Positions 3,922 to 39,365 of a stretch of 64,000 nucleotides of DNA are shown in pieces. The position numbers and the translations under genes are program-made. The notes below the pieces were generated by a model that was given only the letters and a program-made list of their open reading frames with translations, did not search any database and was not told where the DNA came from. Origin of the DNA: an uncultured bacterium (GTDB lineage: Bacteria > Chloroflexota > Anaerolineae > B4-G1); the NCBI GenBank assembly GCA_965612745.1, contig CBFDTD010000003.1:1816-65815 (forward strand), in the 5' to 3' direction. Position 1 is the first letter of the stretch; each line of letters begins with the position of its first letter.

Positions 3922-4722
3922 TCAGTAGTGAATATTGACCGGCGTGCCCACCGAGGCCCAATTGTAGAGCCACTGAGCCTCGGATGTGGGCAGGTTGACG
4001 CAGCCGTGGCTCATCGGATGGCCGAAGTTCGAGTGCCAGTAGGTGCCGTGGAGGCTGTAGCCCCGGTAGAAGTACATCGTGTAGGGCACGTCGGGCAGGT
4101 AATAGCCGGGGCCGGACATATCGTCGGAGATGTATTTGACGTAGATGCGGTATTGGCCTGTGGGAGTCGGCGTGCCTGGCAGGCCGGTCGAGACGAGCGT
4201 GCTGCGCACGGGCGTGTTGCCTTCATAGGCGATGAGCCGCTGTGCGCTGAGGTCAACGTCAATCCAGCGACCGCCGGTCGGGGCGGAGGGCGGGGGAGAT
4301 GGAGCGGGACTTGCGCTGCTAGGGATGTGCAGCACCTGCCCGACGCAGATGAACGAGGGGTTGCGGATACCGTTCGCCTGCGCCAGCGCCCACATCGAGA
4401 CGCCGTACCGCAGGGCGATGGACGAGAGTGTGTCGCCGCGCTGCACGGTGTAGGTCTGGCCCGATGAGGCAGGTTGGGCTGACGTCGCAGGCGCGGTCGC
4501 ACGGCCTGGGAGCACCAGCCGCTGCCCGGCGTAGACGCGGCCGGTGTTGACGATGCCGTTGGCGGCTGCCAGTGCCTGGACGGTCGTGCCGTAGCGCAGC
4601 GCGATGCGGAACAGATTCTCCCCCCGCTGCACGACGTGGATGATAGGCCCCTGGGCGAGAACCGGCGCGGCCAACGCCAATGTCAGCGCGAGCATTGTAG
4701 TGAGTAGCAATACTTTGCGCAT
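3922..4722 (-). CDS. LysM-LysM-L,D-transpeptidase (YkuD domain) secreted protein
   Basis: Signal peptide [24 protein letters not shown], two LysM-like repeats ([18 protein letters not shown]...), and C-terminal [20 protein letters not shown] (Ldt His/Cys catalytic motif). Start moved to M17 (RBS GGAGGAG). Confidence 0.8.
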
Positions 4723-4819
4723 CGTCTCCTCCCCTCTCCCGCCCACTACAGGCCCCTGCCCATCCTCCAACGCTCACAAGCCGGCGTCGTAAGCGACACC
4801 GTCGGCGATCCATATTAAC

Positions 4820-4848
4820 ATTATACAGTATCCGCAGAAAAATTGCCA
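4820..4848 (-). promoter_or_regulatory. Candidate sigma70 promoter for the Ldt gene (TTGGCA-N17-TGnTATAAT on minus strand)
   Basis: rc of 4843-4848 is TTGGCA, 17-nt spacer, rc of 4820-4825 is TATAAT preceded by TG. Confidence 0.3.
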
Positions 4849-4884
4849 ACCGGAGCGTTCCCGCCACTCGAATCCGCGTAGAGC

Positions 4885-4918
4885 CCAAAAAGTAAAGGCA
4901 GGGTTGTGTAACCCTGCC
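4885..4918 (-). terminator. Rho-independent terminator downstream of hsp20
   Basis: Hairpin GGCAGGGTT-GTGT-AACCCTGCC at 4897-4918, followed on the minus strand by a T-rich tract (plus-strand AAAAAGTAAA). Confidence 0.45.
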
Positions 4919-4939
4919 TCTACCTGCTTAAGTGCCTTG

Positions 4940-5386
4940 TTATTTGCCTTTGACTTTGATGACCTTTGGCTTTGTCTCCTCGGACTTAGGCAGAGTGAGC
5001 GTCAGCACGCCGTTCTCGAAGACCGCCTCGGCCTTATCTGCATCCACAGGCACGTTGAGCGTCAGCGTGCGCGAGAAGGCACCATAAGGCCGTTCCTGGA
5101 ACAGGTACTCGACGTTCTCCAGCGGCGGCCGCAACTCCCCCCGGATGCTCAGAGTGTCACCTTCAATGGTAATATCCACCTCATCAGGGGTCAGCCCTGG
5201 CAACGATGCGGTGATGACAATCTCCTCCGGGGTCGTGTACACGTCTAGTGGGAGCCGGAACGGACGCTCCCGTGTGCCCTCTCCCCAATTTCGTGTCGGG
5301 CGCACGAAACTTTCCTCAAAGAGCCGATCCATTGCCTCGCGCAAGGTCATCATCTCGCGCCATGGATCCCAACGTGTCATAGTCAT
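4940..5386 (-). CDS. Hsp20/alpha-crystallin family small heat-shock protein
   Basis: 148 aa. Alpha-crystallin domain pattern (LPLDVYTTPEEIVITASLPG...AVFENGVLTLTLPK). RBS GGGAGGTGAT. Confidence 0.85.
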   Translation of the reverse strand: MTMTRWDPWREMMTLREAMDRLFEESFVRPTRNWGEGTRERPFRLPLDVYTTPEEIVITASLPGLTPDEVDITIEGDTLSIRGELRPPLENVEYLFQERPYGAFSRTLTLNVPVDADKAEAVFENGVLTLTLPKSEETKPKVIKVKGK

Positions 5387-5452
5387 CTCATCACCTCCCT
5401 GCTTTCATAGGGACTTGTGGGGGGAGATTCAATCTCCCCCCATATTTGCTGA

Positions 5453-5908
5453 TTACTTGCCCTTGGCCTTGACCTTGATCGTCTTGGGCCTGACCTCTTC
5501 GGCCTTGGGCAGGGTCAAGGTCAGAATACCGTTCTCGAACTCGGCCTCTGCGTCGTCGGCCACGACCGGGACCGGCAGAGTTAGCGAACGGCAGAAGGAG
5601 CCATAGCGACGCTCACGGCGAATGTAATTCTCCTCTTTGACCTCTTCCTCAGCCTTGGTCTCGCCCTTAATGGTCAGGGTGTCGCCAGCGATGCTGACAT
5701 CCACATCCTCGGGCTTGACGCCGGGAATGGCCGTCTTGACAACGATGGCGTCATCGGTCTCATACATGTCTACGGCCAACGTTTCCGCCCCTAACGGGGC
5801 CAGCCACCCGGTTCGCGGCCTCACAAAACTTTCCTCAAAGAGTCTGTCCATCGCCTCCCGCAGGCTGATCAGGTCACGGAAGGGCTCCCAACGCACCAGA
5901 CTTGTCAT
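5453..5908 (-). CDS. Hsp20/alpha-crystallin family small heat-shock protein (tandem paralogue)
   Basis: 151 aa, similar to the downstream copy (LAVDMYETDDAIVVKTAIPG...AEFENGILTLTLPK). Confidence 0.85.
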   Translation of the reverse strand: MTSLVRWEPFRDLISLREAMDRLFEESFVRPRTGWLAPLGAETLAVDMYETDDAIVVKTAIPGVKPEDVDVSIAGDTLTIKGETKAEEEVKEENYIRRERRYGSFCRSLTLPVPVVADDAEAEFENGILTLTLPKAEEVRPKTIKVKAKGK

Positions 5909-6083
5909 CTCTGCACCTCCTTACTTACCAGGTTTGATGGTAGAATCTCATACCGTTAACAAGCGTCCTTATTCTTAGCATCATTCCATTAGATCGGCAT
6001 AAGAGCCGTATTAGAAATATACTAGAAATAGAAATGCCCCCGCAATGTGGGCAGGGGCAAGGCCCAAATGAACAATAAGGTAC

Positions 6084-6131
6084 GGAGGCCCGGCTTCAGC
6101 CGGGAAATCCCCGCTGAAGCGGGGCCTCCGG
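6084..6131. repeat. Core-only copy of the MITE-A hairpin module (GGAGGCCCGGCTTCAGCCGG-AAATCCCCGCTGAAGCGGGGCCTCCGG)
   Basis: Sequence identity to the internal hairpin pair of the 99-bp element. Lacks the GGCTAAAAT ends. Confidence 0.6.
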
Positions 6132-6167
6132 ATGGGGTCTCCGGATGTCTCTGGATGGTTTTTTCCT

Positions 6168-6938
6168 TCATGCCCCGGCGGGCAGTGATGGGAGAGACCC
6201 GCTTGAATTTTCAGACACGCTCTCGGAGGATTGCTCTTTGCGGAAATCTATGAAGCGGTATCCCACCCCGCGCTCGGTGAGGATGTAGCGAGGGTGGGAT
6301 GGATCGGGTTCGATCTTCTGCCGCAGGTAGGTGATGTATAGACGTAGGTAGTGGATTTCCTCACGATATTCGTAGCCCCAGACCTTGGCCAGCAACGTCT
6401 CGTAGGGCACCACCCAGCCAGCGTTTTCGATCAGGTGATAGAGCAGGCGGAATTCAGTGGGGCGCAACTTGATGCGCTTCCCTTCGACGATGACGTGTTG
6501 GCTGTTGAAATCCACACTTAACCGGTCATCAATGCGAAGGATGGCCTTTTCGGGCATCACCGGCCCCCGAGTGCGGCGCAGCACTGCTCTGACGCGGCTG
6601 ACGAGTTCGCGTGCACCAAAGGGCTTGGTCACGTAATCGTCAGCCCCTAGTTCCAGCCCACGTACCTTGTCCTCCTCGTCGGCCCGAACGGTCAGCATAA
6701 TCACCGGGACATTGGAGATCTCGCGCAGCATCTCCAACGTCTCGAAGCCATCCAGTTCGGGCATCATCACATCGAGGATGACCAGGTCGGGTAGGTGCGT
6801 GCGCACCTTATCAAGCGCCTCCAGACCGTTGTGGGCCTCTATCACCCGGTAGCCTTCCAGTTCCAGGTTCATACGGATGAAGCGCGTCATGCGGGCCTCG
6901 TCATCCACGACGAGGATAAGTTCACGTTGATTAGACAT
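6168..6938 (-). CDS. OmpR-family two-component response regulator (receiver plus winged-helix)
   Basis: LVVDDE...[14 protein letters not shown]...VIMLT receiver motifs. C-terminal trans_reg_C ([25 protein letters not shown]). Start taken at MSNQREL (RBS GGGTGG). Confidence 0.85.
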
Positions 6939-6959
6939 ATTTAGCCACCCTGGCACACG

Positions 6960-7202
6960 CTACTCGCGGATGAAACTGACGATCTTCTCCTCTTCCTCGC
7001 TGGGCAGGATCTCCACGCAGTGGATGCGTGTCCAGGGGAAGATCACCTTGCTGCTTTCGGGGAGAATGTAGGAGACATCGCGGCCATCACGGCGCCTGAC
7101 GTTGGTTACGACCAGCACCTGGTCGGTGGGTTCGGGAATGCGCTCTGTCTCGGCCACAATGGCATCCTCGTTTAATAAATGAATCATCACAGTATAAGGC
7201 AT
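6960..7202 (-). CDS. Hypothetical 80-aa protein in the STK-PP2C-vWA-FHA operon
   Basis: Strong RBS AGGAGGG 6 nt upstream of ATG. 4-nt gap to the response regulator gene. No family recognised. Confidence 0.5.
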   Translation of the reverse strand: MPYTVMIHLLNEDAIVAETERIPEPTDQVLVVTNVRRRDGRDVSYILPESSKVIFPWTRIHCVEILPSEEEEKIVSFIRE

Positions 7203-7230
7203 ACGCTACCCTCCTGGGTCTATCCGTGGT

Positions 7231-7743
7231 TCATTGCCGGATGGTGATTTCCAGTTTGATGTGGCCCAACTGAAGTTCATCCCCATCCTTGAGCACATGA
7301 GGCAAATAGGGAGTTAAACGCTTTCCATTCAGAAAGGTGCCGTTGGCACTACCGACGTCCTCAACCAGGTAAGTCGGGCTGCGCTGGTGAATCTTACAAT
7401 GGCGGCGCGAGACCCCACCTTCGAGTCCTCCATCAGGGGTGAGGTCCAGATCGGGAAAGATGCCGTGTGCTATATCGAGACGCCCGATATGCACTTCGGC
7501 TTTGGAGGGTAGTTGGACCTGGCGGCCCGTGGGCAGAACCTTGATGTGTAATGGGACGAGGAGGGCCTCGTCAGTCTCCTTAACGGGCTCGCCGACCGCG
7601 CACTTCGTTTGCGAAGTGGTCAGTTCGTCTTCGGTAAGTAGGTCAGTCCGCAGAGGGCCGCCGGTGGGCAGGTATAATCCGCATTCGCTGCAGAACAATG
7701 TGCCAGGACGATGTTTATGCCCGCAATACGGACATTCAATCAT
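7231..7743 (-). CDS. Zinc-ribbon plus FHA-domain protein
   Basis: N-terminal CPYCGHKHRPGTLFCSECG zinc ribbon. C-terminal FHA (HIGRLDIAHGIFPDLDL...VSRRHCKIHQ...YLVEDVGSANGTFLNGKRL). Confidence 0.8.
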   Translation of the reverse strand: MIECPYCGHKHRPGTLFCSECGLYLPTGGPLRTDLLTEDELTTSQTKCAVGEPVKETDEALLVPLHIKVLPTGRQVQLPSKAEVHIGRLDIAHGIFPDLDLTPDGGLEGGVSRRHCKIHQRSPTYLVEDVGSANGTFLNGKRLTPYLPHVLKDGDELQLGHIKLEITIRQ

Positions 7744-9220
7744 GGGGCCTTCTCCTTGGAGTAATGGTCAGGCTGCGTGTGCCATACTTGAGTTCTTTGT
7801 GTCCTCTGGCCGTTGGAGTTCCCTCTTTGGCAATACGTCCTGCCTCCAATAGCGCCGCCCGAGCCAATTGGCTCTCCCCCAGATCAAACAAGCGTGTGGC
7901 CATCATCTCCAGACGACGGGTTGCCGTGCTGATGTCTCCCCTCTTCAATGCGTCCCAGGCTCCTTCTTGCATACGGTAGAGGGTGACCCTGTTCAATGCA
8001 TTTAGAATGGCTGTCGGCACCGGTTCAGGCGGTGGCTCAGTGGGTATGAAAGTACAGCGCACGTCGCGCCGGAGTTTATCCCCTTGGCGATCCAGTGCTG
8101 GTATATTGCCCGTGAGTTCGAGTTGCAACAGCCGGTGCTCTCCGGCCGGCCTCTGGGCTACACCAAGTTCCAACACGATGGTCAATGGCGCATTGGCCTG
8201 CAATGTGCCCAGGTTGATCACGCTATCCGTTGGGGTGAGGCGTTCCAGATAGGGCGAGATGCGAAATGCACTCTCCATCCATACACCCTCGGCAAAGCGG
8301 GGCTCCAGCGTTAACCCCTGGGCGAAGACCGTCCCTAGGCCGCGTATCCGCTGTTGTAACAGTGCGCGCACCTGACTAGGCGACGCGATGTAAGCGGAGA
8401 CCCCCCCGCTCTGGGCTGCAATCTCATCGAGCAGGGCGTCGTTCCAGTCCTCGCCTATGCCCATAGCCGTGATGCCAATGCGGCGAGCCCCAGCCTGCCG
8501 GGCCTCGGCTATGCAACCTTCCTCGTCGCCGTAGGTCTGACCATCAGTTAGGAGGATCAGATGAGTGGTGACCCGGTCGCCGTGATGCTTTTCGAGTTCT
8601 GCCAGCCCGGCCCGTATACCTTGCAAAATCTCGGTGCCACCACCGGCCTGGATGGTGGAGATTTTGGCCTTAGCACGGGTGCGGTTGACGTTTGACTGGC
8701 TGGGCAGCACAACCTCGGCCCGATCGCTGAAAGTGACTACTGCCAGAGCGTCATCGTCGTGCAATTCGTCAACGATCTGGTGGGCCGCTCTCTTGACGTG
8801 TTCCAACCGTGCTCCCCGCATCGAGGTGCTACGGTCAATCACCAGGCATAAGTTAAGCGGGAGGCGTTCGGCCTGCGCGGTTGAGGCCGGTCGTATCTCT
8901 ATCAGGAGATAGACCGTCTGCTCCTCGTAGAGAGAACTGAGTTGACTCTGGCTCAGCAGAATCTCCCAGGCAAGGGCCGCCTCCTCGCTTAATCCCAACT
9001 CGGCCCGCTGTCGGTCGTAAGCGCGGCGGCGATGTGGATCGCTCAGGACGGCGTAGGCAATCTGGAGTTCGTGGAACAGCGTTGTAGAGACATCCTCCGT
9101 CCGGCTGTCGGGATGGTAGCGGCGTGCCAGCGCACGATAGGCGCGCTTAATCTCCTCGTCCGTCGCGGATGGAGACACGCCCAGGATGGCGTAGTAGTCC
9201 TTTTCGATGTCTATGCTCAT
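7736..9220 (-). CDS. DnaJ (J-domain) - von Willebrand factor A (TerY-like) fusion protein
   Basis: N-terminal DYYAILGVSPSATDEEIKRAYRALARRYHPD J-domain. Central vWA (LNLCLVIDRSTSMRGARLEHVKRAAHQIVDEL...AVVTFSD; MIDAS D-x-S-x-S). Confidence 0.8.
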   Translation of the reverse strand: MSIDIEKDYYAILGVSPSATDEEIKRAYRALARRYHPDSRTEDVSTTLFHELQIAYAVLSDPHRRRAYDRQRAELGLSEEAALAWEILLSQSQLSSLYEEQTVYLLIEIRPASTAQAERLPLNLCLVIDRSTSMRGARLEHVKRAAHQIVDELHDDDALAVVTFSDRAEVVLPSQSNVNRTRAKAKISTIQAGGGTEILQGIRAGLAELEKHHGDRVTTHLILLTDGQTYGDEEGCIAEARQAGARRIGITAMGIGEDWNDALLDEIAAQSGGVSAYIASPSQVRALLQQRIRGLGTVFAQGLTLEPRFAEGVWMESAFRISPYLERLTPTDSVINLGTLQANAPLTIVLELGVAQRPAGEHRLLQLELTGNIPALDRQGDKLRRDVRCTFIPTEPPPEPVPTAILNALNRVTLYRMQEGAWDALKRGDISTATRRLEMMATRLFDLGESQLARAALLEAGRIAKEGTPTARGHKELKYGTRSLTITPRRRPHD

Positions 9221-9257
9221 ATTCCAACTTGTTCGTAGTGATGACTTCAGCGACTGA

Positions 9258-9321
9258 GATCGCTAAATACTGCGGAAGCCCCGCTTTAGCGGAAACTCCC
9301 CGGCTGAAGCCGGGCCTCCGG
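9258..9321. repeat. MITE-A-derived fragment (hairpin core plus degenerate GCTAAATAC end) in the PP2C / vWA intergenic spacer
   Basis: GGAAGCCCCGCTTTAGCGGAAACTCCCCGGCTGAAGCCGGGCCTCCGG matches the MITE-A core in inverted order. Confidence 0.5.
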
Positions 9322-9330
9322 ACGATTTTT

Positions 9331-10191
9331 CTAATTCGGCGATGGTTCTACCAGGATGGCCGTGATGTTGTCACGTCCTCCGGCCTGATTTGCGGCCGTG
9401 ACCAGACCCTCGCATGCTGCCTGAAGCGAGTAGGAAGTCGTTACAATGTGGATCATCTCCGCCTCGCTCACCATACTCCATAGCCCGTCACTGCAAAGCA
9501 GCAGACGCCCCCCCTGAGGGATAGTTCGTATGTAAGTGTCCACTTCCAGCACACCTTTCTGGCCGACGGCACGGTACAGCACGTTCTTCTGCGGGTGAAT
9601 AGCGGCCTCCTCGCGCGTAAGTTGCCCTAACTCGACCAGACGGTCCACCAGCGAGTGATCGTGGGTGATCTGATCCAGTTTCCCCTCCGTGACAATGTAG
9701 GCCCGGCTATCTCCTACGTGGGCGACGTAGGCTCGCGGCCCGAGCACCAGCGCGCAGGTCAGGGTTGTGCCCCCACCGGGCACTTGATCCGTCACCGCCC
9801 TATTGGCCGCTCGCACTGCATCCACGAGCATCTCCTTCAGCGCAGGTTGCTCCGTGCCACGCTCATTGCTGACGAGTGTCGGCAGATAGAATTGGTGCAT
9901 GATGCGATGAGCCACGATGCGGGCTGCCAAAGAACTGGCGACCTCTCCAGCCTGGTGTCCTCCCATACCGTCGGCCAGGACGAAAAGCCCAAACGGGGGG
10001 AGCGCATCGTCACCATCGTGAGTGGCTGTGATTATGAGCGCTGCATCCTCATTGTGGCGGCGCACCTCACCCACGTCGGTGGCCCACCCGACTTTGAGCC
10101 TGGGACGGGCGGTGGCAGCCACAGGCGGGGACGGGGGATTTGGCGATGTGGATGTTTTCCTCACCCCTAGAAGACTACGTATGAGTTGCAT
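9331..10191 (-). CDS. PP2C-family Ser/Thr protein phosphatase
   Basis: LADGMGGHQAGEVAS, DSRAY, LLCSDGLW, GGRDNITA motifs of PPM phosphatases. Confidence 0.85.
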   Translation of the reverse strand: MQLIRSLLGVRKTSTSPNPPSPPVAATARPRLKVGWATDVGEVRRHNEDAALIITATHDGDDALPPFGLFVLADGMGGHQAGEVASSLAARIVAHRIMHQFYLPTLVSNERGTEQPALKEMLVDAVRAANRAVTDQVPGGGTTLTCALVLGPRAYVAHVGDSRAYIVTEGKLDQITHDHSLVDRLVELGQLTREEAAIHPQKNVLYRAVGQKGVLEVDTYIRTIPQGGRLLLCSDGLWSMVSEAEMIHIVTTSYSLQAACEGLVTAANQAGGRDNITAILVEPSPN

Positions 10192-10221
10192 AGCTACTCT
10201 CTCCCACTAAACAGTGCAGCC

Positions 10222-12219
10222 TCAGGCAGGGAGCGCATACACGTAACGGTCGGTGGATCCAATGTAGACCACGCCGTCCACTATCACAGGCGACGACGTC
10301 ACTGCTCCCTCAGTCTGAAAGCGCCACCGCAAAGCGCCCGTTTGGGCATCCAGGCTGTAGATAGCCCCATCTACCGAACCAAAGTATACCGCCCCTTCGT
10401 CCACGGCGGGGGAAGAAGTCACCTGACCGTCCGTAGCATAACGCCACACCAGATGACCACTCTCGGCATTCAGAGCGTAGAGGTAGCCATCCACGGAGCC
10501 AATGAAGACCAGGCCCCCGCTGACGGCAGGTGAGGACACGACCGGTCCACCGGTGCGATAGCGCCACACCGACCAGCCCGAGCGGATGTCCAGGCTGTAA
10601 ACGTGCCAGTCCTGGCTGCCCACATAGACCATCTCCTCGGCGAGGGCGGGGGATGAGGTCACGCCACGCCGGGCACGAAAGCGCCAGCGCAATTGACCAC
10701 TGATGTCTACAGCGTAGACCATTCCTCCCTCACATCCCACGTAGATCGCGTCATTTCCGATGGCTGGCGACGAACGCACCGGTCCCTCTGCCTCGAACAC
10801 CCAGGCGACACGGCCGCTATGTATATTGGCCGCATAGAGGTGTTGATCGTCGGAGCCAAAGAATACGTGATTAAAGGCGACGCGGGGCGATGACCACACA
10901 CACCCTTGAGTGGGACAGGTCCAAAAGATGCGCCCCGTATCAGCGTTGATCGCATACAGCGCCCGGTCTGCGGAACCGACGAACACACGCCCTTCGTGCA
11001 CGCAGGGGGACGAAGCAATACCTCCTTCGGTAGCGTACTTCCACAGGAACTTCCCATTCTCGGCATTGATAGCGTAGAGATTGTGGTCGTAAGAGCCGAC
11101 GTAGAGGATGCCGTTATGTACCGCCGGTGAGGAGCGGACTTCGTCCTCGCACGCGAAGCGCCACAGGGCCACGACGTCGCTGCTGATGAAGGCCGGAGTG
11201 CCGAAAGAGGTTGTTCCGGTGATACCACGGGTGGAACTCAGGCTCATCAGTGCGCGCTTCATCTCCTCGACCGAGCCGTAGCGCCTGTTGGCGTCGTATT
11301 CCACCGCTCGGTTGATGATTTCCACCAATTCACGGGATACGCTGGGATTGGTTCTGTGAATGGGACGTTCGTGGAAGGAGAATGGCGGCTCTAGTCGTGG
11401 ATCCTGTTTGCTGAGCAGGTGATGCATCGTGGCTCCCAGAGCGTAAATATCCACTCGGGGTTCGGCGATGCCTCGATACTGCTCCGGCGGTGAGTAACCC
11501 TCGGTGCCGATCATAGTGCCTTTCTGGTCAACCTGGAAGATCTTGGCGATGCCGAAATCCACCAGCCGAATGCGGCCATGGTTATCGAGCATGATGTTGG
11601 AGGGCTTGATGTCACGAAAGATGATTGGCTGCGGCTTATGGCTGTGTAGGTAACTCAGCACTTCGCAGATCTGAATAGCCCAGTTCACCACCTGAGCCTC
11701 GGGCAGGAAGCCAGGCGTCTCAAGCAGGAGGGCTTCCAGGTCCTTACCATCTACGTACTCGAGGACAAGGTAACTGCGGTCGCCCTCATTGAAATAATCA
11801 TAGACCTGAACAATACCGGGATGGCTGAGGGTGGCGAGGATACTGGCTTCGCGCTCGAAACTGCGTTTGATCATAGCCCGCACCTGGGGATCCGTGGCAG
11901 TATTGAGCATCTCCTTGACGACGCATAGGCGGGTGACGTTGGGGAAGCGCAGATCCTGGGCCTTGTAGACGGCGCTCATGCCACCAAGCCCCAGCACTCC
12001 CAGAACACGGTAGCGGTTCTGAAGCAAGTGACCATCGGGAAGTCGCCCCTTGACGTGTTCAGGTTGCCGGGGCGGGGAAATGCCTGGCTGTGCTGCCGGC
12101 CCTTTTGAAGAGGAGGAGGATGGGATGCGCGGCTCTTGCGAAGGTTCGGCCTCTGGCGCAGCAGGTCCACTGGAAGAAAAATCGGTTATCTCAATATGCC
12201 GAGTCTCAAGAGACTTCAT
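10222..12219 (-). CDS. Ser/Thr protein kinase with C-terminal PQQ-repeat beta-propeller
   Basis: Hanks kinase motifs (VVKEML, HRDIKPSNIML, DFGIAK, GTEGYSPPE). At least 7 PQQ-like repeats (SSPAV..G.VY.GS.DG.LYALDA.TG..W). Start is uncertain: M22 at 12219 is preferred because a promoter-like TTGCAT-N17-TATAAT lies inside the longer ORF-track start (12282). Confidence 0.8.
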   Translation of the reverse strand: MKSLETRHIEITDFSSSGPAAPEAEPSQEPRIPSSSSSKGPAAQPGISPPRQPEHVKGRLPDGHLLQNRYRVLGVLGLGGMSAVYKAQDLRFPNVTRLCVVKEMLNTATDPQVRAMIKRSFEREASILATLSHPGIVQVYDYFNEGDRSYLVLEYVDGKDLEALLLETPGFLPEAQVVNWAIQICEVLSYLHSHKPQPIIFRDIKPSNIMLDNHGRIRLVDFGIAKIFQVDQKGTMIGTEGYSPPEQYRGIAEPRVDIYALGATMHHLLSKQDPRLEPPFSFHERPIHRTNPSVSRELVEIINRAVEYDANRRYGSVEEMKRALMSLSSTRGITGTTSFGTPAFISSDVVALWRFACEDEVRSSPAVHNGILYVGSYDHNLYAINAENGKFLWKYATEGGIASSPCVHEGRVFVGSADRALYAINADTGRIFWTCPTQGCVWSSPRVAFNHVFFGSDDQHLYAANIHSGRVAWVFEAEGPVRSSPAIGNDAIYVGCEGGMVYAVDISGQLRWRFRARRGVTSSPALAEEMVYVGSQDWHVYSLDIRSGWSVWRYRTGGPVVSSPAVSGGLVFIGSVDGYLYALNAESGHLVWRYATDGQVTSSPAVDEGAVYFGSVDGAIYSLDAQTGALRWRFQTEGAVTSSPVIVDGVVYIGSTDRYVYALPA

Positions 12220-12253
12220 ATCCCGATTCCTGCATACGCTTAACGTATTGTGA

Positions 12254-12282
12254 ATTATAGAGCCAAGTGAGTAAACATGCAA
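12254..12282 (-). promoter_or_regulatory. Candidate sigma70 promoter of the STK operon (TTGCAT-N17-TATAAT, minus strand)
   Basis: rc 12277-12282 is TTGCAT, 17-nt spacer, rc 12254-12259 is TATAAT. Lies 35 nt upstream of the ATG at 12219. Confidence 0.35.
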
Positions 12283-12391
12283 TTGGACAAAGGTACCATT
12301 TTCGTGGTTCTATGGCTCCCAGCCGTCGTAATGAGCGCTTGATCGGTTTGGCGATGCATGCTCGCGGCAGTAGGACAGAATAAGGTGAGGT

Positions 12392-13816
12392 CTATGGCGA
12401 GATGTTGAAATAGTTGTAAGTGGCAGTGGCGATGTCGGCCATAAGGGGTGCGCTCTCCTCCCATTCCAGCCATTCGGGACGGTAGAGAAAGATGACGAGC
12501 ACGAAATCACCGCCTGGGCTAAACACGAGCGCCGCATCGGCGTGGGTGTCGCCGGTCCAGCCGTGTTTGTGTGCCACTTTGGTGCCCACTGGGACCCCGG
12601 CCTCGATGAGGCTATCAATGCGATTCTCACTCATCCACTCGATCATCTGGTTGCACTCATCGTCAGTAAAAGCGCCGGGGTAAGCGACCATCAGCGCGCC
12701 GCCGCCGTGGCTGCACTGATAGATCATCTCCAATAGCAATCCTATGTCCAGCGGCGTGGTCTGTATGAACGGGTCGGGCCGGGTGGTAATGTCGGTACGG
12801 GAATTGGCCGGCGTGACAATAGTCAGTGGAGCCTCTTCGTCGTAGGGGGCCGCCATGAAGGTGTTTCTCAGCCCCAGATACTGCATCGAAGCGGTGAGGT
12901 TTTCGGCCCCCTGAAACTCGTCACCATTGTCTATGACGTCCCGCAGCAGCAAATTGGCAGTGAAATTACCGCTGAGGGTCATCGTCTCGCTAAGCAGTCG
13001 GGTCATTTCGACGTCGGGAGGCTCGTCGAGAGCCCGGTAGGCTTCTTCCAGGATGGCGATCTTGAGCACACTCAACCCGGCGTAGGCGACATCGGCGTTG
13101 ATCCCCAGTTCATCCCCGGTCTGTAGGTCCTTGACGAAGATGCCGGGTATCAGGCCCTCGTGGTCATCCAGGAGAGATTGGAGCAACTGGCCCAGTATGT
13201 CCAGGTCCAGCGGTGGGGCCTCTTTCGTCTGGACGGTCAGTTCGACTCGCCGGTTGGTAGCCGAGACGAGGGCTTTGGCGACCTGGGGGCGGGAGGCCTC
13301 GATATCCAGTTCGTGGCCCGGCTGACCGGGGCGGAAGGTCAGGCTGGCCGGGAGTGGGACCGGCTCCTGTGGCGGTTGGTCGTACTGTCCGGCAATGCGG
13401 GCCAGAAAGCCGTCGAGCCGCTCGTCCGAGTAACTGACCACCACAGGGACGTCCACTGGGGCGGGCGGGCGGCGCAGGATGTGAGCGATGAAGCCATCGA
13501 GTCCTCTCTGTGCAGCCAGTGCCGCATCTAGATTGGCTGCTGTGGCCTCGGCATCGTAGCGCAACTCGACGCTATCGGGGGGGAGGGAGAGATGCTGTTC
13601 CTGGTACTCAAGTTCGACAGGTGTGGCAAAGGCCACCTCGAGCGCATTGAGTGCTTGTTCGCGCGTCATTCCCTCCACTGACATACCGGCCATCGTCATC
13701 CCGACGGGCAGAGTGCGGGTAGCCAGGCGATAGTCGAAGTACTGCCACGCGAGGAAAAGCACAATGACGATGGCAACGATGATGAGCCAGGCGATACATC
13801 CGGTTCTACGTCGCAA
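12392..13816 (-). CDS. Membrane-anchored serine hydrolase, class A beta-lactamase / PBP-like fold
   Basis: N-terminal TM helix. S-x-x-K (GLSVLKIAIL), an SGN(SDN-like) motif and K-H-G-W-T-G (KTG-like) motif in order. 474 aa. Confidence 0.5.
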   Translation of the reverse strand: MRRRTGCIAWLIIVAIVIVLFLAWQYFDYRLATRTLPVGMTMAGMSVEGMTREQALNALEVAFATPVELEYQEQHLSLPPDSVELRYDAEATAANLDAALAAQRGLDGFIAHILRRPPAPVDVPVVVSYSDERLDGFLARIAGQYDQPPQEPVPLPASLTFRPGQPGHELDIEASRPQVAKALVSATNRRVELTVQTKEAPPLDLDILGQLLQSLLDDHEGLIPGIFVKDLQTGDELGINADVAYAGLSVLKIAILEEAYRALDEPPDVEMTRLLSETMTLSGNFTANLLLRDVIDNGDEFQGAENLTASMQYLGLRNTFMAAPYDEEAPLTIVTPANSRTDITTRPDPFIQTTPLDIGLLLEMIYQCSHGGGALMVAYPGAFTDDECNQMIEWMSENRIDSLIEAGVPVGTKVAHKHGWTGDTHADAALVFSPGGDFVLVIFLYRPEWLEWEESAPLMADIATATYNYFNISP

Positions 13817-13857
13817 GGTACACCCTCCATTTCGCAGATGCTTCGTTTCGTTTCGGT

Positions 13858-15507
13858 CTAGCCGAGAAAGTCGCGCAGTTTGCGGCTGCGGCCAGGGTGG
13901 CGCAACTTTCGGAGCGCCTTGGATTCGATCTGCCGCACGCGCTCGCGTGTTACACCGAAGGCGCGCCCGACCTCTTCCAGCGTGTGGCTTTCTCCGTCCT
14001 TCAGTCCGAAGCGCATCTCCAGCACCGCGCGCTCCCGCTCACTGAGCGAATTGAGGATGGAACGTATTTGCTCCTTGAGCAGTTGGTTGGAGGTTGCGTC
14101 AACCGGCCCCAGGATGGTCTCGTCCTCGATAAAATCACCCAGCAGGCCGCTGTCCTCCGCCCCCACCGGCATCTCCAGCGACATTGGCTCCTGCGAGATG
14201 CGCATAATGCTTCGCACTTTGGCCGCAGCGCGACGCAGGCGGCGCTCCAGTGAAGGCGGTAGCGGTTCTCCTGCGGTTTGTGCGGCGAGGATGGCCTCCG
14301 TCTCCTCCGGCTCCAATAGATTCGACTCCAGTGCCAGTTCCTCCACCGTGGGCTCTCGTCCCAGTTCCTGTGCCATCTGCCGCTGGAGACGGAGGAGACG
14401 ATTGATCGTCTCCACCATGTGCACGGGGATGCGGATGGTACGGGCCTGGTCTGCAATGGCCCGGCCAATCGCCTGCCGGACCCACCAGGTGGCGTAGGTC
14501 GAAAACTTGAATCCTTTGGTGTGGTCGAATTTCTGGACGGCTCGGAGTAGCCCGATATTTCCTTCTTGGATCAGGTCGAGGAATGAGATACCGCGCCCCG
14601 TATAGTGCTTGGCGACGTTGACCACCAATCGCAGGTTGGCCCGGGTCAGAAGTTGCTGGGCCTCTAGGGCTCGCTCTTCCAGATTGGCCCATGTCGCTGC
14701 AATTTCCTCTTCACCTGGTACCCTGTGCCTGATCTTGCGCGGTGAGGGGAACTTCTTCCGCTTACGCCACTCCTCACGCAGCAGGTCCAGTGTGGATTCA
14801 GGCAGCAGGTAGAGCAGGATCAAGACGTCGAAGAGATTGCTGGTGAGCGCTTTCCAGGTTTCATCTTCCGATTCTGACCAGCCTATCTGCTCCAGGTAGT
14901 TGTAGAGATACGAAGGGCTCTCCGGCATCAATGCGTGGCGGAGTGCTGCGGCCTCATTTACCAATGCGGCCAGGTCAGGCAAAGGCAGATTCAGGTGGCT
15001 ACAGTTCTTGAGTATGGCCGACCAGGCCTTGCGGAGCGAATTCATCAAGGCAGTCAGGGTTTCCTGTCCTGTTGGTGGTCGTCCGCTCTGCTCTTTCAAA
15101 CGAGCCTGTAAGTCCTTAAGATGAACGGCTGCCTCTCGCTGGGTAGAGAGCCATATCTCCTGGTGTGGTTCCAGGAGGGGCACCCGCCCAATCTCCCGCA
15201 GGTACATGCGTACCGGGTCATCCGTAACTTCAAGCAATGCTTCGCGTGCGGTATCCGTCAGTTCTTCTTCCTCGATTTCTTCTAGTTCGTCAGGGGTGGG
15301 TTCCTCCACTTCGTCCCAGATGGCAGTGTCCCCCTGCTCGTCTGGGAGGCTCTCATCAATTGCCGATGGCGCCAAATTAGCATCGGGCAGCACCGGTGGG
15401 TCGCGATCCGGAGCGTCGAGGATGCCCCTCGTCGCTCGCATCGCCGGCTTATCTGCTGTACCAATTGGTGTAGATTGGTGTTCTTTTTCTCCTGTCATCG
15501 TACTCAA
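13858..15507 (-). CDS. rpoD: RNA polymerase sigma-70 family factor (group 1, RpoD-like)
   Basis: Region 1.2 [16 protein letters not shown]. Region 2 [36 protein letters not shown]. Region 4 [30 protein letters not shown]. Immediately downstream of dnaG (classic MMS operon). Confidence 0.85.
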
Positions 15508-17614: not shown

Positions 17615-17650
17615 TCGGAGGCCCGGCTTCTGCCGGGAAAACCCCGAGGC
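17615..17650. repeat. MITE-A hairpin-core fragment
   Basis: GGAGGCCCGGCTTCTGCCGGGAAAACCCCGAGGCTC resembles the first hairpin of MITE-A. Confidence 0.4.
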
Positions 17651-17757
17651 TCTCTGAGAGTTGCCGTGGTGGGCGCACCGGAGGTCCGAACTTGTTCGGG
17701 TTTGCCGGCGGGCAACCCCAACAAGTTGGGGCATCCGAATCCTGGCCACGGGAAATC
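17641..17757 (+). repeat. Type-B ~117-bp multi-hairpin repeat (CCGAACTTGTTCGGG / CCCCAACAAGTTGGGG hairpins)
   Basis: About 93 percent identical to the reverse complement of 60062-60178. Both copies abut a MITE-A copy. Confidence 0.7.
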
Positions 17758-17804
17758 CCAAAGATCCAACCCCGATAAATCGGGGCCTCCGTCGAGTTTT
17801 GCAC

Positions 17805-17903
17805 GGGTGTGGCTAAAATCAGTGGGACGTCCGGCTTCAGCCGGAAAATCCCCGCTGAAGCGGGGCCTCCGGCCTTTTCTCCCCACGAATTTTAGCCAGA
17901 CTC
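17805..17903 (+). mobile_element. MITE-A full copy (99 bp), TIR GGGTGTGGCTAAAAT / ATTTTAGCCAGACTC, flanked by 9-bp TSD GTTTTGCAC
   Basis: Direct repeat GTTTTGCAC at 17796-17804 and 17904-17912. Terminal inverted repeats of about 15-18 bp. Internal hairpins CCGGCTTCAGCCGG and CCCCGCTGAAGCGGGG. Confidence 0.8.
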
Positions 17904-22477: not shown

Positions 22478-25024
22478 CTATGTGCCTCGCAGCGTCGCGC
22501 CCAGTTCCCGCTCCAGCCGGCGCACGATCTTGGCCCGCAGTTTGGCAACCTCCCGGTCGGTCAGCGTGCGGTCGCCCGCCTGATAGGTGAGGCGGTAGGC
22601 TAGACTCTTCTTACCGGCCCCCACTTGCTCCCCTCGATAGACGTCGAACAGCACGACCGAGCGCACAAGCGGCCTGCCGGTCTGGGCGATGAGGTCGCGT
22701 ACCCGTATCGCCGGTACTGCCTCGTCCACCACCAGCGCCAGGTCCTCGTAGACCGGCGGGTGGACGGAGATGGGCACCATCCTACGCGGCGCTCCCCAGG
22801 CCGCCAGCAGCCCGTCCAGGTCAAACTCCAACGCGCAGACAGGCTGCTCCGGCAGGTCGAAGGCCTCCCGCACCAGAGGGTGCAGTTCCCCCATCACGCC
22901 CACCGCGCCGTCCCCAACGCTCACCTGCGCACAGCGGCCCGGATGGAAGGCCGGGTGCTCGCCCGGCTCGAACGTCCCCTCCAGACCCAACCCTGCCAAC
23001 AGTGCCTCCACTACCCCCTTGAGATCGTAGAAGCCCACCGGCGCGCGGTCCTGTCCCTCCAGCCACGAGCGGGCCTCTCGCGGCCCGGTCATCACGATGC
23101 CCAGCCGGCGCGGCTCGTCGGGGAGCGTCTGCCCCTCCACCGGCAGGTAGACCGCGCCGATCTCGAAGATGGCCACGCGGTCGAGGAAGCGCAGGTTCTC
23201 GCGGGTGGTGTGGAGCAGGGAGGGAAGTAGCGTCTGCCGCAGGTAAGCACGCTCCGCCGACAAGGGATTCCGCAGGCGCAGATGGTCGGCCGGGTCAGGG
23301 GGTGGCCCCTGAGGCCGCAGTTTTCCCTCGTCCTCAATGTTCACCAGCGAGTAGGTGATGACCTCGTCCAGTCCACAGCCGGTTAGAAGGTCACGCACGC
23401 GCTCAGCCCCTTCCAGGCGGGGGTTGGCCCGCTGCGGCGGCAATTCGTCGCGCATAAGCGTCGTTGGGAAGCGGTCGTAGCCCCAGATGCGTCCCACCTC
23501 CTCAACCAAGTCTATGGGCCGCGTGACGTCGAGGCGATGGGATGGAACCATCACGTTCAGGGTTTCAGGTTTCATAGTTCCAGGTTCCCCGCTGTCTGTT
23601 AAACTTGAAACCTGCAACCCCGAAACCTGAAACTCAAGAGAGGTGAGGATGCGGATGATTTCGTCCGTCGGAATCTCGACGCCCAGGACACGGGTGGCGT
23701 AGGCCGGGTCAAAGACGACGACCCGCTGCGGCTGACGGCCAGGGTACAAATCACCGATGACCGGGACGACGGTGCCACCGGCCAGTTCCGCCATCAGATG
23801 GGCCGCCCGTGCCGCTGCCTTCACCGTCAACTCCGGGTCCACCCGCCGCCCGAAGCGCTGGCTTGCGTCGGTCGTCAGCCCCAGCAGGCGGGAGGTGCGG
23901 CGGATGTTGAGGAAATGGAAGTTCGCCGACTCCAGGAGGACGTCGGTCGTCTCCTCGGTGACCTCGCTTTCCAGACCGCCCATCACACCGGCCACGGCCA
24001 CAGGGCCGCCGCCGTCGGTGATGAGTAGCATTTCTTCGTCGAAGGTGCGTGAGATCCCGTCGAGAGTCATCATCTGCTCACCGGGTTCGGCGCGGCGCAC
24101 GATAATGACCGGGCGGTCTTCGCCTGGCCTGGGGCGCAGGAGGTGGTAGTCGAAGGCGTGCAGCGGCTGCCCCAACTCCAGCATCACGTAGTTGGTGACG
24201 TCCACGATGTTGTTGATGGGACGCATCCCGGCGCGGCGCAGCCGCATCTGCATCCAGAAGGGGGAAGGCTTCACTTCCACGCCTCGGATGAAGGCCGCCG
24301 AGTAGCGTGGGCACAGGTCAGGATCGGCGATCTCGAGCGCGATGAAGTCAGGCGTGGGGGTCAGTTCCGCCGGATGTCGCTCCAGCACTTCGAGCACGTC
24401 CCTTCTGAGCGGCACGTCGAGGAGCGCCGCCGCCTCGCGGGCGATGCCGAAGACCGAGTACAGGTGGGCGAAAGGCCCCTTGATATCGAACTCCAGCACA
24501 GCGTCGCCCAGGTACTCGGCCAGCGGCGTACCGACGGGCGCGTCGTCGGGCAGGTAGATGATGTCCACGTGCTCGTCGGAGAGGCCCAATTCCTTTTCCG
24601 AGCAGACCATCGCCCGCGAAGTGACGCCGCGGATTCTGGCCTTCTTCAATTTCTTGATGCGCGGCTCCTCGGAGTAGGGATCCCAGAGGCGAGCGCCCTC
24701 CATCGCGAAGGCCACCTTGAGGTGCAGATCGCTCTGCCCTCGGAGTGGTAGCAAACTGGGAGGCCCGGAGACGACGACTTCGGGCTCCGGGCCACCGTAC
24801 TCCACCTCCGCCAGGACCAGCCGGTCGGCGTTGGGGTGGGGATACACGGCGCGGATCTCGCCGACGACGACCTTCTCCGGGTCCCAGGGTAGTTCAGCCC
24901 CCGGTAGGCCGATGTATTCGATAGTCTCCACATCCAGTCCGGCCAGTGTCAGCCGTTCGGCCAGTTCCTTGATGGAAACCGGGATGTCTACGTAGTCTTT
25001 GAGCCAGGATAAGGGAACCTTCAT
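22478..25024 (-). CDS. pheT: Phenylalanine--tRNA ligase beta subunit
   Basis: 848 aa. N-terminus MKVPLSWLKDYVDIPVSIKELAERLTLAGLDVE. B3/B4, B5 and C-terminal anticodon-binding regions. Confidence 0.9.
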   Translation of the reverse strand: MKVPLSWLKDYVDIPVSIKELAERLTLAGLDVETIEYIGLPGAELPWDPEKVVVGEIRAVYPHPNADRLVLAEVEYGGPEPEVVVSGPPSLLPLRGQSDLHLKVAFAMEGARLWDPYSEEPRIKKLKKARIRGVTSRAMVCSEKELGLSDEHVDIIYLPDDAPVGTPLAEYLGDAVLEFDIKGPFAHLYSVFGIAREAAALLDVPLRRDVLEVLERHPAELTPTPDFIALEIADPDLCPRYSAAFIRGVEVKPSPFWMQMRLRRAGMRPINNIVDVTNYVMLELGQPLHAFDYHLLRPRPGEDRPVIIVRRAEPGEQMMTLDGISRTFDEEMLLITDGGGPVAVAGVMGGLESEVTEETTDVLLESANFHFLNIRRTSRLLGLTTDASQRFGRRVDPELTVKAAARAAHLMAELAGGTVVPVIGDLYPGRQPQRVVVFDPAYATRVLGVEIPTDEIIRILTSLEFQVSGLQVSSLTDSGEPGTMKPETLNVMVPSHRLDVTRPIDLVEEVGRIWGYDRFPTTLMRDELPPQRANPRLEGAERVRDLLTGCGLDEVITYSLVNIEDEGKLRPQGPPPDPADHLRLRNPLSAERAYLRQTLLPSLLHTTRENLRFLDRVAIFEIGAVYLPVEGQTLPDEPRRLGIVMTGPREARSWLEGQDRAPVGFYDLKGVVEALLAGLGLEGTFEPGEHPAFHPGRCAQVSVGDGAVGVMGELHPLVREAFDLPEQPVCALEFDLDGLLAAWGAPRRMVPISVHPPVYEDLALVVDEAVPAIRVRDLIAQTGRPLVRSVVLFDVYRGEQVGAGKKSLAYRLTYQAGDRTLTDREVAKLRAKIVRRLERELGATLRGT

Positions 25025-27110: not shown

Positions 27111-28139
27111 CTAGAACTGCCGCAGGAATCGCAAATCATTCCCGTAGAACAGGCGAATGTCGTCAATGCCGTATTTGACCATCGCAGGTCGTTCGACGCC
27201 AAAGCCAAAGGCGAAGCCACTCCATTCGTCGGGGTCGTAGCCGCCGTTTTGTAACACGACCGGGTGCACCATCCCCGCCCCGCACACCTCCAGCCAGCCG
27301 GAGTATTTGCACACCCGGCAGCCCGCCCCGCCGCATAGAATGCAGTCCATATCGGCTTCGATGCTAGGCTCGGTGAAGGGAAAGTAGGAGCCGCGAATGC
27401 GGATACGACGCTCCGGCCCGTAGAATCGTCGCGCGAACTCGGTCAGCGTGCCGATGAGGTCGGTCATCGTGATGGCGTGCCCTATCGCCAGCCCCTCCAC
27501 TTGATAGAATTGGTGCTCGGAGCGGGCGGTGATTTGCTCGTAGCGGTAGCATTTACCGGGCAGGATGACGCGGATGGGCTCAGGGTAGCGCTCGCGCATC
27601 ACCCGGATCTGCCCCGGCGAGGTGTGGGTGCGCAGCAACACCTCGTCGTTGATCCAGAAGGTGTCCCACATATCGCGGGCCGGGTGATGGGGCGGCATAT
27701 TCAGCAGCCCGAAGTTCAGTTCGTCGGTCTCGACGTCGGGGGCCTCGTAGACCTGGAATCCCATCTCGGCGAAGATGGCGGTGATCTGACGCAGTGTCTG
27801 GGTGGTGATGTGCAGGTGCCCCGGCCCGGTGGGGCGGCCCGGCAGCGTGACGTCCAGTGCGCCCCGTTCCAGTTCGCGCTGCATCTCCTCCTGACGCAGT
27901 GCCTCGGCGCGGGCCTCGGAGGCTGCTTCCAATCTAGCCTTGGCTTCATTGGCGGCCCGCCCAAAGGCCGGACGCTCCTCCTTGGGCAGTTCTCCGACGG
28001 AGCGCAAAAACAACGTCAGCGCACCTTTCCTTCCCAGATAGCGCCTGTGCCAGGCGGCCAGCGCGTCACTGTCTTCCACCGCCTCCAGCGCGGCAAGGGC
28101 TTCCTTTTCCACCTGTCTCAATTGGTCAAGCATCGGCAA
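27111..28139 (-). CDS. pheS: Phenylalanine--tRNA ligase alpha subunit
   Basis: 342 aa. Class II motifs (FRPSYFPFTEPS, GAGMVHP...GFAFGFGVER). Confidence 0.9.
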   Translation of the reverse strand: MPMLDQLRQVEKEALAALEAVEDSDALAAWHRRYLGRKGALTLFLRSVGELPKEERPAFGRAANEAKARLEAASEARAEALRQEEMQRELERGALDVTLPGRPTGPGHLHITTQTLRQITAIFAEMGFQVYEAPDVETDELNFGLLNMPPHHPARDMWDTFWINDEVLLRTHTSPGQIRVMRERYPEPIRVILPGKCYRYEQITARSEHQFYQVEGLAIGHAITMTDLIGTLTEFARRFYGPERRIRIRGSYFPFTEPSIEADMDCILCGGAGCRVCKYSGWLEVCGAGMVHPVVLQNGGYDPDEWSGFAFGFGVERPAMVKYGIDDIRLFYGNDLRFLRQF

Positions 28140-39317: not shown

Positions 39318-39365
39318 GGAGGCCCGGCTTCAGCCGGGAGATCCCCGCTGAAGCGGGGCCTCCGG
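39318..39365. repeat. Core-only copy of the MITE-A hairpin module
   Basis: GGAGGCCCGGCTTCAGCCGGGAGATCCCCGCTGAAGCGGGGCCTCCGG. Confidence 0.6.

Follow-up and report, generated by a model that had tools for sequence, protein, structure and literature searches.

A stretch of 64,000 nucleotides (nt) from an uncultured bacterium of the class Anaerolineae (contig CBFDTD010000003.1), referred to here as the window, carries six successive open reading frames (ORFs) on its minus strand that fill positions 6168-12282. They encode a Hanks-type Ser/Thr kinase with a beta-propeller, a PP2C phosphatase, a fusion of a J-domain with a vWA domain (for von Willebrand factor, type A), a Zn-ribbon protein with an FHA domain, a small protein of 80 amino acids (aa) that we term S80, and an OmpR-type response regulator. 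This order, kinase–PP2C–J::vWA–Zn-ribbon::FHA–S80–OmpR regulator, which a first-pass annotation had listed for the window alone, recurs without change in about 45 species-level Anaerolineae genomes. Judged from its sequence, the operon is related, on the bacterial side, to the ArnA/ArnB phospho-switch of archaea, and its regulator most likely switches on the small-heat-shock genes next to it.

The first-pass annotation had suggested a phosphorylation pathway that ends in transcription and is possibly coupled to Hsp70. The general idea stands, backed by an invariant HPD motif in the J-domain and by a PhoB-type repeat array ahead of hsp20. For who phosphorylates whom, the binding of the array by the regulator, the role of S80 and the logic of DnaK titration, we infer the scheme set out below. 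As a whole, the reading that a Ser/Thr-phosphorylation switch, coupled to DnaK by the J-domain, drives a heat-shock regulon has in our estimate an even chance of being correct.

A conserved six-gene operon

S80 was used as a probe against one genome per GTDB species, which returned 47 loci, all from Anaerolineae or Chloroflexota metagenome-assembled genomes (MAGs). The proteins of the window were mapped to these loci by tblastn, and the denominators given here and below count the loci long enough to show the gene in question. Kinase (39/39), propeller (43/43) and regulator (43/43) were found throughout, vWA and FHA in 44 of 45 loci each, the J-domain in 41 of 44 and PP2C in 39 of 44. The S80 gene directly follows the Zn-ribbon::FHA gene wherever the sequence suffices and directly precedes the regulator gene in nearly all loci. 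In 37 of 43 loci the vWA gene shares 4 or 8 nt with the FHA gene, in 7 of 44 there is an overlap between the genes for S80 and the regulator, and the gap between the regulator gene and the gene before it ranges from -23 to +50 nt in most loci. The operon is kept at 48% S80 identity, and also in cluster members whose representatives are about 30-35% identical. Across the 47 species-level loci this arrangement is far beyond chance, and we conclude that it is a core, vertically inherited chromosomal operon of Anaerolineae and no mobile island. Identical or 99%-identical proteins are carried by Chloroflexi and Thermoflexia MAGs from hydrothermal and hot-spring metagenomes.

Locus L040 has kinase, PP2C, S80 and regulator and lacks both vWA and FHA, and L060 has FHA and S80 without the regulator. 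In L061 (2975-4849) the operon has decayed: the kinase is truncated, a propeller fragment stands in frame with the C-terminal half of S80, and PP2C, vWA and FHA are deleted. A protein joining a propeller fragment to the C-terminal half of S80 (P0228) was considered as a Rosetta-stone fusion and rejected, as its contig holds a decayed, deleted locus. Unusually long S80 matches (P0213, P0187, P0211 and P0240) were set aside as chimeric or frameshift products.

All domains named in the six proteins passed the Pfam gathering scores, which upholds the first-pass calls for kinase, propeller, PP2C, DnaJ, vWA, Zn-ribbon, FHA and OmpR. None of the six proteins (0/6) contains a hydrophobic segment that would be compatible with spanning a membrane.

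The single operon proposed in the first-pass annotation is likewise borne out by a conserved promoter ahead of the kinase gene, by a terminator behind the regulator gene and by the frequent vWA/FHA overlap; from these signals the six genes are read as one transcription unit. A sigma-70-type promoter (12254..12282, minus strand) sits between the kinase gene and an upstream gene for a beta-lactamase-fold protein, with a -35 element TTGCAT at 12277-12282, a 17-nt spacer and a -10 element TATAAT at 12254-12259. A TTGCRY-N17-TATAAT block, in which the spacer is conserved too, occurs upstream of the kinase gene in many species. A consensus promoter scanner overlooked this promoter, the -35 element of which agrees at 3/6 positions only. 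Uncommonly for such an element, the spacer itself (12260-12276, 17 nt, GTTTACYCATTTGGCTC) is conserved across species, and a repressor might bind there. At the other end, an intrinsic-terminator-like hairpin (6035..6059, minus strand) with a 9-bp stem of which 7 are GC pairs, followed by the T-run TTTCTATTTC, stands after the regulator gene, and a GC hairpin occupies the same place ahead of the repeat array in other species. No convincing terminator was found inside the operon.

Two gene limits of the first-pass annotation had to be revised. Its kinase start, a TTG at 12282, is the first base of the conserved -35 hexamer and is therefore not the start codon; the most likely start is the ATG at 12219, as called in six metagenome copies. 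The regulator was moved from a start at 6956 to 6938, in line with the gene calls in six identical metagenome copies. With the revised starts, the intergenic gaps from kinase to regulator are 30, 110, -8, 28 and 21 nt.

The tight spacing noted in the first-pass annotation holds, with the 110-nt gap between the PP2C and vWA genes as the exception that was named there. The miniature inverted-repeat transposable element (MITE) that had been placed in this gap is better described as a palindrome of about 50 nt resembling a repetitive extragenic palindromic (REP) element (9273..9322, no strand assigned), and it is one of a dispersed set. The arms of the element are GGAGGCCCGGCTTCAGCCGGG and CCCCGCTGAAGCGGGGCCTCC; by its looks it is REP- or MITE-like and intergenic. 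A 21-nt half-site pattern matched 19 times in the window against 0.02 matches expected, with family copies at 6083-6132, 9273-9322, 17617-17870, 33399, 39318-39363, 41873-41991, 48350-48395, 58828, 59966-60011 and 62580. In most other species the PP2C-vWA spacer measures -4 to +23 nt and the element is missing. It is thus a lineage-specific insertion and marks no operon boundary. The copy in the spacer folds stably (z = -3.6) and has no U-tract; an internal terminator at this place was rejected on account of the missing U-tract and the confinement to this lineage. An Rfam scan of positions 4500-14000 returned nothing near the gathering scores.

Relation to the ArnA/ArnB phospho-switch

The vWA protein and the FHA protein carry the resemblance to ArnB and ArnA. 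The J::vWA protein (7736..9220, minus strand; 494 aa) consists of a J-domain at residues 8-69 (Pfam DnaJ, PF00226, 80 bits, 1.3e-22), a vWA domain at residues 123-290 or so (VWA, PF00092, 81 bits, 1.6e-22) and about 200 further residues. The HPD tripeptide of the J-domain was invariant in sets of 42 and 20 orthologues, and this invariant J-domain points specifically to Hsp70. Among the same 20-42 orthologues, the MIDAS (adhesion site dependent on metal ions) motifs DxSxS, GGTE and TDG of the vWA domain were invariant, as was a K-Y-G-T481-R-S-L motif at the C-terminus. T481 in the YGTRSL sequence fits pTxxL and is a candidate FHA-binding phosphosite. The Zn-ribbon::FHA protein (7231..7743, minus strand; 170 aa), the gene of which overlaps the vWA gene by 8 nt, matched Pfam FHA with 63.2 bits (3e-17) and Zn_ribbon_3 with 28.6 bits (9e-7), and its orthologues share the motifs CxxC...CxxC, GR, SxxH and NG. 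A natural J-vWA-FHA fusion of 660 aa also exists (P0257).

When a profile of 20 vWA orthologues was compared with the PDB, the top match outside the J-domain was 8S05_A (5.7e-21), followed by ITIH4 and 4FX5 (5e-18). The single vWA protein, compared with solved structures, matched 5A8J at 9e-10, and the PDB matches of the Zn-ribbon::FHA protein include ArnA (5A8I, 8S05_C). Of these entries, 5A8J shows vWA2, a paralogue of ArnB, 4FX5 a structural twin of it from bacteria, and 8S05 the complex of ArnB with the Zn-finger of ArnA (PMC6509490, PMC12852372). The vWA domain is hence homologous to that of ArnB. The alignments to 8S05 and 4FX5 end at query residues 316-329, with about 170 residues beyond that include the YGTR motif. 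In ArnB the vWA domain sits in an 8-stranded beta-sandwich and is followed by a helix bundle with the phospho-sites; the likeness described here concerns the vWA part.

In Sulfolobus acidocaldarius, ArnA, which combines a Zn-ribbon and an FHA domain, is encoded beside ArnB, a vWA protein with an intact MIDAS (PMC6509490, PMC12852372). In its C-terminal part ArnB receives phosphate from Hanks-type kinases, and the FHA domain thereupon forms a tight, phospho-dependent complex with it; the contact made by the Zn-ribbon is loose and phospho-independent (PMC6509490, PMC12852372). The mechanism responds to nutrient limitation (PMC6509490). The operon of the window shares with this pair the ArnB-like vWA domain with its intact MIDAS and an adjoining gene for a partner that has a Zn-ribbon at its N-terminus and an FHA domain at its C-terminus. 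ArnA/ArnB are archaeal, work with the kinases ArnC/ArnD and the phosphatase PP2A, and act on the archaellum by repressing motility. The operon described here, in contrast, is bacterial, holds a kinase and a PP2C phosphatase of its own, bears a J-domain at the N-terminus of the vWA protein, adds a probably Sm-like 80-aa protein and an OmpR-type regulator, and has heat-shock genes as predicted output. On sequence, ArnA/ArnB is a better comparator than the TerY-P triad that the first-pass annotation had named, and we hold it highly probable that the operon encodes an ArnAB-like phospho-switch.

Kinase and phosphatase would supply the two enzymes of this switch. The kinase (10222..12219, minus strand; 665 aa) is cytoplasmic and ends in a PQQ-type beta-propeller of about eight blades, which are marked in the DNA by direct repeats at 120-nt spacing. 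Its Pkinase domain scored 146.8 bits (1e-42) and the propeller 354 bits on PF13570 (Beta-prop_ACSF4/PQQ_2). The K, RD and DFG motifs and the GT..GT of the activation loop are conserved in 40 orthologues. In Streptomyces, the soluble kinase AfsK, which has a PQQ-type propeller, phosphorylates AfsR, a regulator with an OmpR-like DNA-binding domain. AfsK was also the top NCBIfam kinase model for the protein described here; because the score of 252 bits is far below the cut-off of 1300, the protein is not an AfsK orthologue. The PP2C phosphatase (9331..10191, minus strand; 286 aa) scored 67.3 bits on Pfam (2e-18) and 236.6 bits on the NCBIfam Stp1/IreP equivalog Stp1_PP2C_phos (cut-off 230), and its metal-binding motifs are conserved among orthologues.

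A bacterial operon of related content has been described in Deinococcus radiodurans: according to a preprint, DRA0331-DRA0334 encode a vWA protein, a kinase, a FraH-like FHA protein and a KI-FHA::PP2C, with antagonism between FHA and PP2C in vitro (bioRxiv 10.64898/2026.01.23.701218). Both operons thus combine a vWA protein, a Hanks-type kinase, an FHA protein and PP2C. The Deinococcus kinase is membrane-bound and lacks a propeller, the PP2C has an FHA domain of its own, the gene order is different, and J-domain, S80 and response regulator are missing. The combination of vWA, FHA, PP2C and Hanks-type kinase is a known theme, of which ArnAB is a studied instance. New are the fixed six-gene bacterial version, the J-domain fusion (41/44 loci), the family to which S80 belongs, an orphan OmpR regulator within the operon and the predicted heat-shock operator.

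The orphan regulator, the TCTAAYG array and S80

The last gene of the operon (6168..6938, minus strand) encodes an orphan response regulator of the OmpR/PhoB family (256 aa) with Pfam scores of 111 bits for Response_reg (4e-32) and 84.5 bits for Trans_reg_C (5e-24). Its top NCBIfam model was RpaB, with a score under the cut-off. The phospho-acceptor pocket is intact, with DD, D, T and K conserved in 46 orthologues. No histidine kinase gene (HisKA or HATPase_c) occurs in any of the neighbourhoods examined around the regulator gene. The nearest one, a multi-GAF protein of 1370 aa with HisKA and HATPase_c (48429-52541, plus strand), lies about 36 kb off and is the sole one among the large window ORFs annotated.

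Four direct repeats of TCTAAT (5988..6026, minus strand), each an 11-bp unit of TCTAAYG plus 4 nt, lie between the operon terminator and the first hsp20 gene and are the predicted operator of the regulator. The array scores 22/24 matches and is the sole such site in the 64 kb of the window; shuffled sequences yielded 0. An extended -10-like element of the hsp20 promoter, TGc TAAGAAT (5971..5980, minus strand), is found 10 nt downstream of the last repeat and precedes two tandem Hsp20/alpha-crystallin genes (4940..5908, minus strand; 5453-5908 and 4940-5386) with Pfam HSP20 values of 5e-22 and 7e-20.

A set of loci totalling about 0.85 Mb (duplicate copies skipped) was searched for the array at a threshold of at least 19/24. 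All 16 arrays that reached it (16/16) were located 100-270 nt upstream of an hsp20 start. In three of these 16 loci hsp20 is 1-1.7 kb away from the regulator gene, and the array still lies ahead of hsp20. A metagenome-wide search with a strict pattern gave many low-GC or satellite matches, together with six further hsp20 promoters and two grpE promoters; the latter belong to L095 and L128, and GrpE was confirmed at 4e-46. The array thus precedes hsp20 in at least 22 loci. The consensus unit from 25 loci is TCTAA[T/C]G with four variable bases after it. In 25/25 of these loci there are 10 nt between the end of the last repeat and the -10-like hexamer, and in most a TG stands 2-3 nt ahead of the hexamer.

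In the pho boxes bound by PhoB, head-to-tail units of 11 bp (7 conserved and 4 variable) replace the -35 element and end 10 bp upstream of the -10 element. The array has the geometry of the pho box and of OmpR-family class II activators. It differs from the pho box in its TCTAAYG sequence, in its four units instead of two, and in an input that is apparently a Ser/Thr-kinase module and not a cognate histidine kinase. A parallel for the proposed target is the cyanobacterial Hik34/Hik2-Rre1 system, where a regulator of OmpR type acts directly as activator of hspA, which encodes a small heat-shock protein, and of further chaperone genes (Kobayashi 2017 and Bairagi, as cited in PMC9321951). Rre1 and the regulator described here are alike as orphan OmpR-type regulators with a small heat-shock target, which for the latter is a prediction; the cyanobacterial input is a histidine kinase, and the regulator described here is closest to RpaB in NCBIfam. 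From position and geometry, we slightly favour a direct link from the regulator through the array to hsp20.

Three further ideas on this region were dropped. Autoregulation through the array was rejected, as no array of at least 17/24 was found upstream of the kinase gene or elsewhere in the window. Co-variation between recognition helix and array was too weak to serve as evidence, a distant clade (L043 and relatives) having PHYV in place of IHYL together with a degenerate array. An RNA thermometer in the 5' untranslated region of hsp20 was likewise rejected, the fold being no stabler than that of shuffled sequences (z = +0.5).

S80 (6960..7202, minus strand; 80 aa) is encoded between the FHA protein and the regulator. 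The first-pass annotation had called it uncharacterised, and so it is: S80 has no Pfam, NCBIfam, PADLOC or PDB sequence match, and a Pfam search with 43 members of the family at E up to 10 gave no match either, including the LSM profile. More than 320 homologues were collected, nearly all of 79-81 residues and 70-100% identical. An S80 profile gave 135 matches at E up to 1e-3 among 1.84 billion representative proteins; one distant member is labelled Ktedonobacterales. S80 defines a new, small and very conserved family of 80-aa proteins. A first AlphaFold (AF2) model from 24 close homologues had a pLDDT score (local distance difference test, as predicted) of 57.5, which rose to 86 after 32 divergent members were added. 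The latter model, from a 43-sequence alignment, has five strands followed by an acidic tail of low confidence, and no N-terminal helix. Its top Foldseek matches in the PDB were all Sm/LSm proteins, Edc3 LSm first, with weak E-values from 0.011 and template modelling (TM) scores of 0.5-0.67. The modelled fold is likely an Sm-like five-stranded barrel, which is a statement on fold and makes no claim that S80 belongs to the Sm/LSm family. At the C-terminus, F-[IV]-R-E hardly varies, and two divergent members have LLRRIREA after a long acidic linker. By its sequence, this end looks like a tethered short linear motif, and one possibility is that it acts as an acidic ligand of the vWA MIDAS.

A proposed heat-shock pathway and its alternatives

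The order of signalling steps can be pictured as follows. The soluble kinase, with the propeller as its presumed input, and PP2C would set the phosphorylation state of the ArnB-like J::vWA protein. The Zn-ribbon::FHA protein, a reader of the ArnA/FraH type, would hold the vWA protein loosely through the Zn-ribbon and tightly once the FHA domain binds a phosphothreonine, for which T481 is the best candidate. Through its HPD-containing J-domain the complex could recruit and activate DnaK, and the switch would either sense free Hsp70, as in chaperone titration, or be remodelled by Hsp70. S80 may serve as the adaptor through which the orphan OmpR/PhoB-type regulator learns what state the complex is in. 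This regulator is predicted to bind the four TCTAAYG repeats as two head-to-tail dimers, with the repeats replacing the -35 element of the hsp20 promoter (of grpE in relatives), and in its bound form would activate heat-shock genes.

In chaperone-titration circuits, among them sigma32-DnaK/J, HspR-DnaK, HrcA-GroEL and IRE1-ERdj4-BiP, the amount of free chaperone signals whether chaperone genes are to be expressed. The J-protein ERdj4 places Hsp70 on a stress kinase. We know of no bacterial heat-shock circuit that puts a J-domain inside a Ser/Thr-kinase/FHA/vWA module. A feedback through J-domain and DnaK is a tentative part of the scheme, and we think this feedback rather unlikely. More doubtful still is the far-reaching version, in which the operon is the master heat-shock sensor of Anaerolineae: the J-domain loads DnaK onto the kinase/FHA complex, titration flips the switch, and the signal is relayed by S80 to the regulator and on to hsp20, grpE and dnaK.

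If the scheme is true, it provides the first concrete candidate for control of heat-shock genes in Anaerolineae, a large and mostly uncultured class. The ArnA/ArnB FHA-vWA switch, so far studied only in Sulfolobales, would have bacterial relatives in an operon of kinase, phosphatase, reader and transcription factor, and this operon would supply the DNA-binding output that the archaeal system is missing. Fusion of a J-domain to a signalling vWA scaffold would moreover tie eukaryote-like Ser/Thr signalling to the availability of Hsp70. The regulator and its predicted operator of four TCTAAYG repeats form a pair that is testable in vitro with recombinant protein.

Several observations weigh against a heat-shock pathway of this kind. 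The tie between regulator and array is one of synteny, which could be inherited rather than functional, and the array may be the target of another regulator. Of 36 loci, 20 have an hsp20 gene within 2.2 kb on the downstream side of the regulator; in the other 16 it is not adjacent. In two distant lineages with the six-gene operon, the gene directly after the regulator is relA/spoT, for a (p)ppGpp synthetase/hydrolase (L182, 9983-12211, with a 4-nt overlap; L183, 10200-12432) and not hsp20. Perfect arrays of four TCTAAT, again with 10 nt between array and -10 element, also precede tatA-tatB-tatC (L138, 1114-1152) and a 1021-aa NACHT-HEAT gene (L079, 5975-6013); the regulon of the array may extend beyond chaperones. 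As the Asp pocket of the regulator is canonical, its true input may come from an unlinked histidine kinase. Of 44 loci, 3 lack the J-domain and 5 lack PP2C, and the Sm-like assignment of S80 draws on weak Foldseek E-values.

Some of these points could also reflect a general starvation or stress hub like ArnAB, in which the phospho-switch reports nutrient or growth state and hsp20 is one member of a broad regulon. The response of ArnAB to nutrient limitation (PMC6509490), the position of relA/spoT behind the regulator and the arrays before non-chaperone genes in two contigs all fit such a role. The targets of the array, however, are overwhelmingly hsp20, with grpE in addition, and the J-domain directs attention to Hsp70; we consider a starvation hub improbable, roughly on a par with the next alternative.

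This next reading, marginally less probable again, places the operon in cell-envelope or morphogenesis signalling of filamentous Chloroflexota, with peptidoglycan or the septum as input, envelope genes as output and hsp20 as a mere neighbour. A gene directly upstream of the kinase (12392..13816, minus strand), which the first-pass annotation had correctly recognised as a serine hydrolase of beta-lactamase fold, encodes PG_binding_4 and a class-A beta-lactamase-fold domain by Pfam, behind an N-terminal transmembrane anchor. It is a frequent upstream neighbour (18/35 loci) outside the core operon, and in this genome a LysM-YkuD L,D-transpeptidase (Pfam) is encoded downstream of the operon. An envelope role would also suit the AfsK model as top NCBIfam kinase match, the perfect array ahead of tatABC in one contig, and the Zn-ribbon::FHA architecture, which equals that of FraH, a filament-integrity protein according to the D. 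radiodurans preprint (bioRxiv 10.64898/2026.01.23.701218). The six operon proteins, on the other hand, are all without transmembrane segments, and the beta-lactamase-fold gene does not occur in that half of the loci which diverges more and is cut off from the kinase gene by the operon promoter. The window has no array close to envelope genes, and the J-domain would be left unexplained.

A third possibility is that two units share one transcript, S80 and the regulator working with an unlinked histidine kinase while kinase, PP2C, vWA and FHA proteins act elsewhere. The intact Asp pocket, the multi-GAF histidine kinase 36 kb away and the partial gene sets of L040 (no vWA and FHA) and L060 (no regulator) agree with such a division. 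Against it stand the presence of the regulator in all 43 loci at mostly short or negative gaps, an order that holds down to about 30% S80 identity, and the fact that a histidine kinase is never adjacent in the neighbourhoods examined, and we regard the division as quite unlikely.

The first-pass annotation had matched the operon to the TerY-P triad, a TerY-like vWA protein with PP2C and a kinase bearing a C-terminal Zn-ribbon (in the defence variant, an OB fold) that is linked to Ter or restriction systems and thought to be a phosphorylation switch (PMC11090510). As in the triad, vWA, PP2C and kinase are encoded in adjacent genes, and the kinase domain matches PADLOC kinase models, PD-T4-6 and mad6 among them; FHA, J-domain, S80 and regulator are additional here. 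That the operon is a TerY-P-type stress or anti-phage triad, a metal-sensing phospho-switch for defence or tellurite-type stress, is very improbable: the vWA domain scores 18.7 bits on PF10138 (vWA-TerF-like), under the cut-off of 29.4, as against 81 bits on the generic PF00092; the kinase ends in a propeller and in neither a Zn-ribbon nor an OB fold; no PADLOC model matches the proteins vWA, FHA or S80, and the PADLOC matches of the kinase are generic Pkinase similarity; and conservation is vertical across the class, not patchy. The match to TerY-P was therefore given up.

The genomic context also speaks against TerY-P: no Ter, restriction or defence genes were found around the operon, which has a housekeeping setting with dnaG, rpoD, hsp20, GH57, pheST and glmS as neighbours. 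Other genes annotated in the window are sbcC and one for a class II aminoacyl-tRNA synthetase.

In six related loci (L007, 2591-3457; L016, L020, L024, L028 and L053) the opposite strand carries a gene for a double-FHA protein, at about 0.4-1.3 kb upstream of the one for the beta-lactamase-fold protein. In L007 it is followed by a gene of the FGE-sulfatase family; the double-FHA gene is absent from the equivalent position in the window.

The genes pheS (27111-28139) and pheT (22478-25024), which are usually adjacent, are split in the window by an ORF of 683 aa (25043-27094, minus strand) that has no Pfam match at E up to 1e-5.

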